Of a stretch of 64,000 bases of DNA, positions 22,743 through 25,700 are shown one piece after another. The notes beneath the pieces were generated by a model. That model had not been told where the DNA came from, searched no databases, and was given only the letters and a program-made list of their open reading frames with translations. Positions within the stretch are counted from its first letter, which is position 1. Every line of letters starts with the position of its first letter. Made by a program: the position numbers and the translations under genes. The stretch spans positions 85,561 to 149,560 of the forward strand of contig DAOLDL010000001.1 of the NCBI GenBank assembly GCA_035327305.1, given 5' to 3'. This DNA is from Kiritimatiellia bacterium (GTDB taxonomy: Bacteria; Verrucomicrobiota; Kiritimatiellia; CAIVKH01).

Positions 22743-25700
22743 TTAGTCCGCCAGCCTGACCCTCGCGCGATACCAGTGCGTAGTCATGGTTCCTGCGGCG
22801 GGATACATGTATGGTCCGCTTCCCCCCGAAATATTGGTGATGGCTTCCAACCAGTCCGTGTCATCGCCATTATGGCGCTCCAACTGGTATATCCTTCCAT
22901 GAATCGTGGAAAACCAAAGCAATCCTGATCCGTCCATGTTTACGACAAATTGTGAATCGTGGTCGGTCGGGTCGGTTCCGGCGATGTATTCCTCTAGGTT
23001 GGTCATGCCATCGTCGTCCGCATCCTGATACGGCATGGAAAGGTTGCCGGTTTTTCCGGTCGGTGATCCAAAATGCCCGGTCATCCACCAGTCGGGTATG
23101 CCGTCGCCATCCGAATCCTGTCCTTCCGGCGCCGACACCTGCCACAATTCATTCCATGATCGTGCTATACGTACTTCATCGAAATGCACAAGGCCATTGA
23201 ATCCGGAGTTCGCGCCCGATGCCAGGCGAATGCCGTCAATTCGTGCGATGATTCCCGTGACCCCAAGAAGGAACAGGGGTTCCGATTCGGGAATTGCGGC
23301 AACATTTGTAAAGTAGATACCGGACATGATTCGCGTATCAAAATCGTAACGACCCACCAACTGATAATCCACCCCCGCCGGAAATGAATCGGGACTCCCA
23401 TGCACTCCCTGGGAAATCCCCGAAATAGAGACGCCAAATATGTCGTCATTTCCACTGGAGCCACGTTCACCTACGAACGCACGTTCAGTAGCGCCATCAA
23501 AAAAGCTTACACCGCTGAATTTGCCGTCGTTGAGTCCCTCGGCATGTTGCCGTCGGTATAACGTCGCCACATAGATGCGACCATTGGTCACTGCATTGAA
23601 TTTCCTGAAAGCGGCATAAAGCGACGGATTGGTAGTGGCGAAAACAAGGCGGTTGCCCGATTCCTGCGGCCAGGCCGAAGGAAAATTACCGAAATTGCCG
23701 CCATTGATGACGACATCGGTGTTCGTCCGAGGAACAGTAATCGTCCATGCGTTGGTCCATCCGAGTCCGCCCATGAGACCCGAAGGAATCACCGCATTGG
23801 TGTAGGCAAAACTCTCGACGATCGCACCGATGCGATACATCTCCGTGGTTGCAACTGCCGTTATGGCAGGCGAGTAACGATCGTTATTAATCGTGTAGAA
23901 TTCGTAAAAATGTTTTGTGCCCGGGGCCACAACATGTTCAAGGTTGGTAACATTGACCGCACCTGAAATCTTGAAAAGAACGTGGCCGGCTCCCAAAGGA
24001 CCGCCGGCATGATACGTGACGCCGTTGGCCGGACTCACGTCAGGTGGTGTTTCGCTTCGATAAACGATCAGTACGGTGCGTCCCTGTGGTTCGGAAAAGC
24101 TCAACCGCACCATCTCCGCGCCATCGTGCACCGCTGAAACGGATGAGGGCGAAGGAATATTTGTTATTGTTAATGTTACCTCCATGTATGCGGGATTGTT
24201 GGTCTGGTTGCCGTCGATACGATTGGTGGCGATGAATACTCCGGTTTCCGTGAAGGATGCGCTATTTACGAAAACGGTATGGACGGCGGAGCCTCCTGTC
24301 ACAACACTGAAATTGGTCATACTGGTTCCCAGCCAGCCGGAAGGACCTGATCCATACGAGAAATGATGATCACCGAACAACATACCGGTTCCAAAATTGG
24401 TGATGACGATGGGTTGGCCGGCCGGAATCGGATTTCCGCCCAGCATGGCGGAGAAGGTTATTTGCAATGGTTCAACGCCCAATCCGGGCGCGGACACACC
24501 GCCCGTTTCGAACAGCACTTCCTCGCCGTAAGCGATGCCCGCGCTGTTGATCGCGTACGCGCGTGTATAATAAACAACTCCTGAACTTAATCCCGTCAGC
24601 GTGTTGGTGAACATACCCAAACCGGAGCCTGCGGCGTTCCGAAAATCGTTGGTCGTTGGCAACGGCAAAGTGTTCCATACAACTCCGCGTTCGATGACCG
24701 TCGTGCCGCCGTCGTCAATTACCTCGCCACCGCCTTTGGCCGCGGTTTCGGTTATCTCCGTTATCGGCGCGGTGACGACACTGGCCAATCCGGGTTGCGG
24801 TGCGCCTGCCGGTGGTTCCCTGGTGAAAATCTGCATGCTGTAACGGCCCATGTTCACGTAGGCCGCGCCTCCTGACACGATCAACTGGGTTGTGCCGATG
24901 TTCCCGAAATCCGCCTGGTAATTGGTGGAATCTCCATTGTAATGACTGTACCAGACGCCATCAGATGGAAAGGCAATCGAGTAATTGTTATTGGTCCAGT
25001 TGATGTTCGCGAAGTTCGCCACCACCACGGCGTCGTCGGTTTGTCCGCCGGCATCCCACCGGATGTAGGCGATTACCTTGTTGTTGTTATCCACATGATG
25101 CACATTTATCCCGGTGCCTTTCAGCCCCTTGGATCCACCGCGCAAATTGCGTCGGACATGAATCAGGTCCGTGTAGGATCGTACGATGCCGCTGAACGAG
25201 TTGGTTCGGGTCCATCGCAACGGCACGTTATCGTGAAAGGCCTGTGTCTCAAGCATTTCCTGACCTTGAAAGATCATGGGCATGGCGGGCGCCGTCATCA
25301 CAATTCCTGCCGCCAGCAGTGATCGTTTACGCGCCCAGATACTTTCCGGATTTCCGGAGTCTATTTCCGACGGCAAGCGGCTTCGCCCGTGATTCGATGC
25401 GATATAATCATGCGCCTCGGAAAACAGCACCCGGTTGAGACTTGCCCAATCCCGCAAAAGATTGCGAACTGTGAACATATTGCGGTTGGCGTCCGAACCC
25501 GTTGTGACCTGGCCATGCAACGACCAACGCCCGGCGACATCCCATTGTCCTTGAAAATTCATGCTGTAATCGAATGCATTGTCTTCGGCAATGCGTTGGA
25601 CATAGGGGTAATTTTGCTGAAGGTGCCAGTTGATGTCGCGCAACATGTGTTCACCGGTTTGATTGTGTCCCCAGTCACTGTTGATAATGTAATATGGGGC

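Follow-up and report, generated by a model that had tools for sequence, protein, structure and literature searches.

An uncatalogued C-terminal module of secreted enzymes in Verrucomicrobiota, a candidate surface-retention tag

Among the domain-type tags and anchors that close secreted proteins, the nearest described counterpart of the feature reported here is the type A C-terminal domain (CTD) of the type IX secretion system (T9SS; Por_Secre_tail, TIGR04183/PF18962) of Bacteroidota, a system that to our knowledge is confined to the Bacteroidota group. The feature is a C-terminal module shared by two secreted glycoside hydrolase family 13 (GH13) proteins, A and B, of a Kiritimatiellia bacterium, which are encoded in a 64,000-nucleotide stretch of DNA (the window, positions 85561-149560 of the first contig, C1, of a 3.27-Mb draft genome of 156 contigs and 52.7% GC). 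It consists of a pair of putative calcium-binding loops followed by a beta-domain. Similar to the T9SS CTD, the module is a folded beta-sandwich of about 70-100 aa that sits at the extreme C-terminus and closes dozens of unrelated hydrolases and adhesins with signal peptides per genome, C25 peptidases included. However, no profile of the T9SS CTD matched any of 50 module tails at E <= 1, its fold is absent from the structural neighbours of the beta-domain that Foldseek finds in the PDB, and in the wider family the module also occurs in tandem arrays of two to nine copies. The beta-domain family is uncatalogued in Pfam, NCBIfam and the PDB, very large, and widespread in Verrucomicrobiota including Kiritimatiellia, and the module appears to be undescribed in public knowledge. 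We tentatively favour the view that it is a calcium-dependent surface-retention tag on secreted enzymes and not a translocation signal.

Several other described systems resemble the module in part. The PEP-CTERM/exosortase system also uses a C-terminal sorting signal and is common in the same phylum, but there a short motif precedes a transmembrane helix and a basic tail, whereas the module is a folded soluble domain with neither; its tails lack a hydrophobic helix and end in a beta-strand followed by xLP. The source genome holds two exosortase genes (contig C6, 18659-19411 and 42922-43656) and at least nine classical PEP-CTERM proteins, mostly of 200-280 aa, none of which is among the 53 module proteins that we describe below. 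The module is distinct from PEP-CTERM and also, as an earlier, sequence-only reading of the window had proposed, from the T9SS CTD. The PPC domain (PF04151) is likewise a small C-terminal beta-sandwich, single or in tandem, on hydrolases that Gram-negative bacteria export through Sec together with a type II secretion system (T2SS). It occurs largely on peptidases and is usually removed after secretion, and whether it serves secretion or binding is debated. No PF04151 match was found in the tails or proteins scanned, and the passengers of the module span 42 Pfam families. Non-covalent anchors such as the SLH, choline-binding and GW repeats are also terminal, come in variable tandem copies and attach diverse enzymes to the cell's own envelope, and in Caulobacter the region of RsaA that anchors it to lipopolysaccharide (LPS) is calcium-dependent; none of these is related to the module in sequence or fold, and the hosts of the module are diderm bacteria of the Planctomycetes-Verrucomicrobia-Chlamydiae group.

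Within the module itself, the first half resembles TSP3_bac (PF18884) and the thrombospondin type 3 repeat (PF02412) through its DxDxDG-type loops, and the second half resembles the fibronectin type III (FN3) domain (PF00041), which provides the best though weak structural neighbours and whose B-strand Trp, C-strand Tyr and F-strand Tyr-x-Val positions fit. The 50 tails were scanned against Pfam-A (2025 copy) and NCBIfam (release 20), and no model matched them consistently even at E <= 1, with only scattered single matches and none to fn3; moreover, the beta-domain has six predicted strands and not seven and is, at 65-75 aa, shorter than FN3. TSP3_bac matched 11 of 40 paralogous proteins at E <= 1e-5 (best E 3.6e-15), yet it stays below its cut-off in protein B (residues 1044-1064, E 0.0012, 19.1 bits against a 25-bit cut-off), is absent from protein A, and leaves the constant terminal domain unexplained. 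No description of the module came up in full-text searches of the literature, and the account of Kiritimatiella glycovorans reports Sec, Tat and T2SS and mentions no C-terminal tag (Spring et al. 2016, PMC5148204).

The coordinates of proteins A and B and of the parts of their tails are collected in Table 1. Protein A most likely starts at Met26 (nt 26648) or Met34 of its open reading frame (ORF), where the N-terminus is signal-peptide-like, and Pfam recognizes CBM_48 (residues 69-137), Alpha-amylase and Alpha-amylase_C (543-629). Its best NCBIfam matches, to TreZ and GlgB types, both lie below cut-off, and its GH13 domain is of the TreZ/GlgB/pullulanase type. Protein B probably starts at Met52 (nt 54862) with a signal peptide that ends ..SPALA/DP; Pfam and NCBIfam place the GH13 catalytic domain, which is of the alpha-amylase/cyclomaltodextrinase type, at residues 405-764 and a Big_5 Ig-like domain at 909-1008. 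The two tails, residues 1203-1326 of protein A (nt 23117-22746, with the stop codon next) and 1013-1145 of protein B (nt 57745-58143), are the top match in a whole-protein BLASTP comparison, with 48 of 97 residues identical (49%, E 2e-19), and this similarity is far beyond chance. A profile hidden Markov model (HMM) of the beta-domain built from the same genome recognizes it in both (i-E 3.6e-10 in A and 5.1e-14 in B), with an envelope that in each case ends 5 aa short of the stop. The common module that the sequence-only reading had reported is thus real and its coordinates were right. The motifs that it quoted all appear in the pairwise alignment, including two DxDxDG-type loops in each tail that by their pattern would bind calcium, except that the Val of the terminal [YF]RxxV lies four and not three residues from the end. 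The same reading had called the two passengers unrelated, and this stands for subfamily and architecture (CBM48-GH13-AamyC against N-terminal module-GH13-Big_5) but not for the catalytic regions, since both are GH13 and share a weak local BLASTP match (33% over 108 aa, E 6e-9).

Table 1. Positions in the window of proteins A and B, the parts of their C-terminal modules and an adjacent regulator gene
Feature	Residues	Position	Strand	Content and basis
Protein A, 1326 aa		22743..26723	minus	ORF; signal peptide, CBM48, GH13, Alpha-amylase_C, ~570 aa without Pfam match, C-terminal module
Protein A, putative TSP3-like Ca-binding loop pair	1203-1259	22947..23117	minus	DSDGDGIPDWWM...FG / DADDDGMTNLEEYIAGTDPTDHDS; alignments
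Protein A, predicted six-stranded FN3/Ig-like beta-domain	1260-1326	22746..22946	minus	..LLWFS..HGRIYQLE..DW..YRARVRLAD-COOH
Protein B, 1145 aa as listed		54709..58146	plus	ORF; signal peptide, N-terminal CBM-like region, GH13, Big_5, C-terminal module
Protein B, putative TSP3-like Ca-binding loop pair	1013-1069	57745..57915	plus	DSDNDGIPDWWM..FG / DADGDGVTNLEEFIAGTNPNDTNS; alignments
Protein B, predicted six-stranded FN3/Ig-like beta-domain	1070-1145	57916..58143	plus	..LRVEFLGQWGRAYSLESTTNL..DW..MFRLKVAPGL-COOH
AraC-family-like regulator gene		53950..54768	minus	ORF; AraC-type helix-turn-helix region at C-terminal end, by reading of sequence

AlphaFold2, run with the alignment of paralogues, predicts the isolated beta-domain of protein B as six strands (pLDDT 90.7) and the whole 135-aa tail with similar confidence (pLDDT 92.7, pTM 0.82), with a short helix after each putative calcium loop (H11-18 and H42-48) followed by the six strands, which suggests that the whole tail forms one compact unit. 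The modelled fold is a six-stranded FN3/Ig-like beta-sandwich, and when it was compared with the PDB by Foldseek only generic neighbours were recovered (a de novo Ig-like protein, the FN3 domains TENCON and neogenin, and CBM-like domains of GH13 enzymes), at E values never below 0.017 and TM scores of about 0.45-0.66; the top natural matches, FN3 domains, lie at E 0.03-0.2 and TM 0.35-0.55. A sequence profile search of the PDB gave no relative of the beta-domain, and for the first half of the tail it returned only calcium loops of the EF-hand and OmpA-TSP3 types. The beta-domains are acidic (mean net charge -3), poor in Lys (1.0% vs 3.7%) and essentially free of Cys.

Counting paralogues with an HMM of the two tails, as the sequence-only reading had proposed, we found 51 ORFs in the source genome at E <= 1e-3, and a profile of the beta-rich part iterated to convergence raised this to 53, each with exactly one copy. 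Of the crude gene calls, roughly 2,800 in all, these proteins are about 2%. The beta-domain follows the pattern W..GRxY..NL..W..GtG..D..[FY]RVxV..P-COOH, in which W, GRxY, NL, W, GtG, D and [FY]R[VL]xV are conserved, and the polypeptide ends 1-14 residues beyond the last strand; in 51 of the 53 copies the stop codon follows within 14 residues of the module. The two exceptions are a copy cut by the end of a contig and a pseudogene-like read-through, ORF o4213 (contig C4, 82838-84061), the sole 'internal' copy in the genome. This ORF has a truncated N-terminus, and past FRLRVS its frame continues for 229 aa, overlapping in antisense a 264-aa ORF of the opposite strand. It probably represents a gene in decay, a pseudogene or an error of the assembly. 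The final residue is Pro in 31 of 51 module proteins (61%, against 9% in other long ORFs), but '..LP / ..AP' also closes the internal copies of tandem arrays in other proteins, and the terminal Pro therefore marks a domain boundary and is not a signal of the free C-terminus. Directly upstream of the beta-domain a TSP3-like loop of the form DxDxDGxxNxxE is present in 38 of 52 family members (about three quarters), and approximately 11 proteins have the beta-domain alone, from which we take the beta-domain to be the constant part and the loop pair to be a frequent companion. TSP3 repeats also occur elsewhere in the genome without the beta-domain.

The module is confined to proteins exported through Sec or Tat, and it closes many unrelated and mostly large hydrolytic passengers. 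In a crude scan, 42 of the 47 module ORFs with an intact N-terminus were signal-peptide-like, compared with 603 of the 1651 remaining ORFs in the genome that are 300 aa or longer (Fisher p 1.6e-13). Inspected by eye, two of the five misses do have signal peptides and a third is a Tat-signal sulfatase; the other two are a gap of Ns and the pseudogene-like ORF. Every complete module protein bears a Sec signal, apart from the one with a Tat signal. Because this sulfatase (contig C74, 5574-7727; Pfam TAT_signal and Sulfatase) carries the beta-domain, the module is not limited to Sec substrates. The 40 module proteins that were scanned together match 42 Pfam families, among them GH13 (six proteins), GH57 (three), GH31 (two) and subtilases of family S8 (two), and further a C25 peptidase, a sulfatase, beta-helix lyase-like proteins, proprotein-convertase P domains, purple acid phosphatase, and FG-GAP and RCC1 proteins. 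Four genes for C25 (gingipain-family) peptidases lie on contigs C39, C40 and C69, and three of them end in the module. The GH13-like paralogues, about 25 in number, are divided: none of the eight without a signal peptide has the module, and those with a signal peptide comprise about ten longer proteins that carry it and about eight shorter ones that do not, one of these a lipoprotein. The module therefore marks a subset of the exported proteins, mostly large polymer-degrading enzymes. As a side observation, with so many GH13-like paralogues in addition to GH57 and GH31, many of them exported and module-bearing, the organism looks like a specialist for alpha-glucans (starch or glycogen) with two tiers of enzymes, one long and tagged, the other shorter, untagged and equipped with signal peptides.

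Beyond the source genome, a search of a 1.84-billion-protein library with the beta-domain profile found 40,380 cluster representatives at E <= 1e-3, of which 1,947 reached E <= 1e-10. Among the best 150 of the 40,380, which were ranked by summed score and hence are biased to multi-copy proteins, nearly all have two to nine tandem copies, and some consist of little beyond arrays of the beta-domain; in 130 of 145 the last copy ends no more than 10 residues from the C-terminus. The sequence-only reading had taken an internal position to speak against a sorting or anchoring role, and copies that are internal by the letter do exist in these arrays, although the arrays themselves are C-terminal. Its notion of a lineage-specific domain does not hold in a narrow sense: in a sample of the phylum 119 of 301 genomes and 75 of 148 genera have the domain. 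In the window's own class most genomes do, often with at least 19 scored matches, and a few families lack it, notably ones whose genomes are small (about 2 Mb). The 120 nearest homologues of protein B, of which the named ones are metagenome-assembled genomes of Kiritimatiellia, Verrucomicrobiae or Chthoniobacterales, keep the tail in about 112 cases. Four of the 120 stop exactly at the boundary between Big_5 and the module while having ordinary signal peptides, and the module is therefore a separable unit with a sharp boundary; a search among the 120 for a lipoprotein signal or another sorting tag in its place turned up, besides these four, a few with an unrelated C-terminal region.

The sequence-only reading had suggested looking for co-occurring machinery, of which we found none. 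In a contrast of 36 domain-rich with 29 domain-poor genomes of the window's class, a secretin (PF00263) was present in 65 of 65, the GspK of the source genome's T2SS in 63 and an exosortase (PF09721) in 62. The T2SS was accordingly rejected as a co-varying machine, for it is present in lineages without the domain as well, and the exosortase was rejected as a mutually exclusive alternative, as it is nearly universal here and PEP-CTERM proteins coexist with the module in the source genome. C25 peptidases (PF01364) gave strong matches in 24 of the 36 domain-rich and in 2-3 of the 29 domain-poor genomes. Being absent from 12 domain-rich genomes and themselves module-bearing, they are cargo and not an obligatory partner in the manner of a PorU-like sortase. 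SprA_N (PF14349) was found in none of 21 genomes, a search in which the control genomes also gave no match and which thus had no positive control. Clustering of the 242 genes within three positions of the 53 module loci gave no recurrent partner family, the sole recurring neighbours being two-component regulators, next to five loci, and the family alignment shows no conserved cleavage motif between passenger and module.

The source genome does have a complete T2SS operon (contig C33, 86-16156, minus strand; gspE-F-G-H-I-J-K-L-M-D), in which the I and J genes and the L/PilMN gene are assigned by likeness, gspD has an N0 domain and is followed by a HEAT-repeat gene, and Pfam recognized no GspC homologue. 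Ahead of this operon and in the same orientation lie two genes for beta-helix proteins and one for a 446-aa module-bearing protein, the latter directly upstream of gspE. As a partner of gspE this gene was rejected, because only 9 of the class's 151 genomes have its N-terminal domain, which is paired there with the beta-helix gene, not with gspE; in two other genomes module genes lie beside gspD, and that neighbourhood is not conserved either. The pair itself is conserved in those nine genomes: first comes a beta-helix protein (NosD/pectate-lyase-like), then one of about 400 aa that joins an uncharacterized N-terminal domain to the module.

We infer that the module determines where its passengers end up, and the proposal of a sorting or anchoring tag made from the letters alone fits its distribution (one terminal copy, exclusively on Sec/Tat proteins, in 42 Pfam families), though not the search for machinery. 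What kind of tag it might be, and whether it is one, can be weighed against other views. It is conceivable, but on balance unlikely, that the module truly signals export across the outer membrane or sorting there, and that this folded C-terminal domain is read by the T2SS or by an undescribed translocon or sortase; such a machine would need the module for passage and might cut it off or link it covalently, in the way that T9SS treats its CTD. Single, strictly C-terminal copies restricted to Sec/Tat proteins with dozens of unrelated passengers are the signature of a T9SS CTD, and C25 peptidases, whose gingipain family uses the T9SS CTD in Bacteroidota, carry the module here. A T2SS takes both Sec and Tat substrates, and the genome has both a complete T2SS operon and a Tat-signal sulfatase with the module; moreover, the split of the signal-bearing GH13 proteins into those with and without the tag is what one would expect of extracellular and periplasmic destinations. 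However, none of the machinery surveyed co-varies with the domain, one third of the domain-rich genomes (12/36) lack a C25 peptidase, no neighbour recurs at the 53 loci, the module gene beside gspE is a coincidence of this genome, tandem internal copies exist, and the junction with the passenger bears no conserved cleavage motif. A further view, in which the module would be the cargo tag of an undescribed surface-display pathway across Verrucomicrobiota and would do for a phylum that lacks T9SS what the CTD does for T9SS, seems doubtful to us. In such a pathway the folded module would be recognized by a surface receptor of its own or by some component of the outer-membrane secretion apparatus, and the enzymes would thereby be fixed on the surface, and, if it were true, it would explain how polysaccharide specialists keep many large hydrolases cell-bound. 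We also think it unlikely that the module is a passive end domain without a role in localisation, that is, a cap or spacer that stabilises the protein, or else a generic Ig-like (CBM-like) module for binding glycans or substrates that spread among secreted proteins by shuffling. Its FN3/Ig-like fold has generic structural neighbours only, such domains are common fillers in bacterial extracellular enzymes, the tandem arrays resemble other structural Ig-like repeats, homologues of protein B without the module exist, and no partner machinery was found. Yet modules of this sort normally occur at varied positions, whereas here the very C-terminus is the site of 51 of 53 copies and of 130 of 145 arrays; a single binding specificity would be ill-suited to amylases, proteases, sulfatases, phosphatases and RCC1/FG-GAP proteins alike, and the numbers, both in the genome and among the cluster representatives, are very high. 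Last, the duplicated calcium-binding loop-helix segments at the C-terminus of many glycoside hydrolases recall dockerins (PF00404), and the loop pair, with or without the beta-domain, might plug enzymes into a cohesin-like scaffold as a multi-enzyme surface complex, but we consider this very improbable. Pfam scans of tails and whole proteins found no dockerin or cohesin family, the only cohesin match to the beta-domain profile in the PDB was insignificant (E 0.096), about a quarter of the modules lack the calcium loops while the beta-domain is constant, and no scaffold candidate appeared among the neighbouring genes, a partner search that was not exhaustive.

In the surface-retention reading that we tentatively prefer, Sec or Tat would export the passenger, the passenger would cross the outer membrane folded, probably via the complete T2SS of the source genome, and the terminal module would then hold the large polymer-degrading enzyme on the surface of the cell or within its own matrix. 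Retention would come about through a non-covalent binding that depends on Ca2+, with either an anionic polymer of the envelope (LPS or exopolysaccharide) or other copies of the module as its target. We favour retention over an export signal because the number of terminal tandem copies varies, from two to nine; variable terminal copy number is characteristic of non-covalent anchors (the SLH, choline-binding and GW repeats among them), and we know of no secretion signals that come in tandem or variable-copy arrays. The T2SS evidently works without the domain, given that secretin and GspK are present in lineages of the same class that lack it, and that no dedicated partner gene was found, neither a recurrent neighbour nor an obligatory peptidase, points in the same direction. 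So do the four homologues of protein B that end at the module boundary and have ordinary signal peptides. Moreover, beta-domains that are acidic, poor in Lys and free of Cys and that stand behind calcium loops fit a Ca2+-bridged rather than a simple electrostatic binding. A number of points weigh against retention. Our literature searches found no experimental localisation of any family member, and no ligand or receptor for the module emerged from the analysis. The single copy at the extreme C-terminus in the source genome looks like a T9SS CTD too, and an anchor has no obvious need for so strict a terminal position. The evidence from tandem arrays comes from the copy-number-biased top of the list and probably from other classes of the phylum, and Ca2+ is not essential to all modules, since about a quarter of the domains lack the loop part.

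In oceans, sediments, soils and guts, Verrucomicrobiota and Kiritimatiellia play a major part in breaking down complex and sulfated polysaccharides, and we know of no account of how they export very large hydrolases and hold them cell-bound. If the module is a retention or sorting tag, it would represent a new protein-localisation system, a simple sequence rule that predicts the set of extracellular enzymes, and a handle for surface display. Even if it is structural only, a Pfam or NCBIfam model would better annotate tens of thousands of 'hypothetical' C-termini. New here are the full census of the genome and the negative results for several candidate machineries.

Two further gene arrangements may be recorded. 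On contig C29 (11022-19930) a PilM-like gene, a 362-aa gene of unassigned function and a gene for a 346-aa TSP3-repeat protein without the beta-domain are followed by one for a 958-aa secretin that has TPR and STN regions, after which comes a homologue of Dpy19-like membrane glycosyltransferases, an unusual cluster of pilus or secretin type. In the window, the AraC-type regulator gene listed in Table 1 lies divergently upstream of gene B, which it may control, and contains no part of the module.

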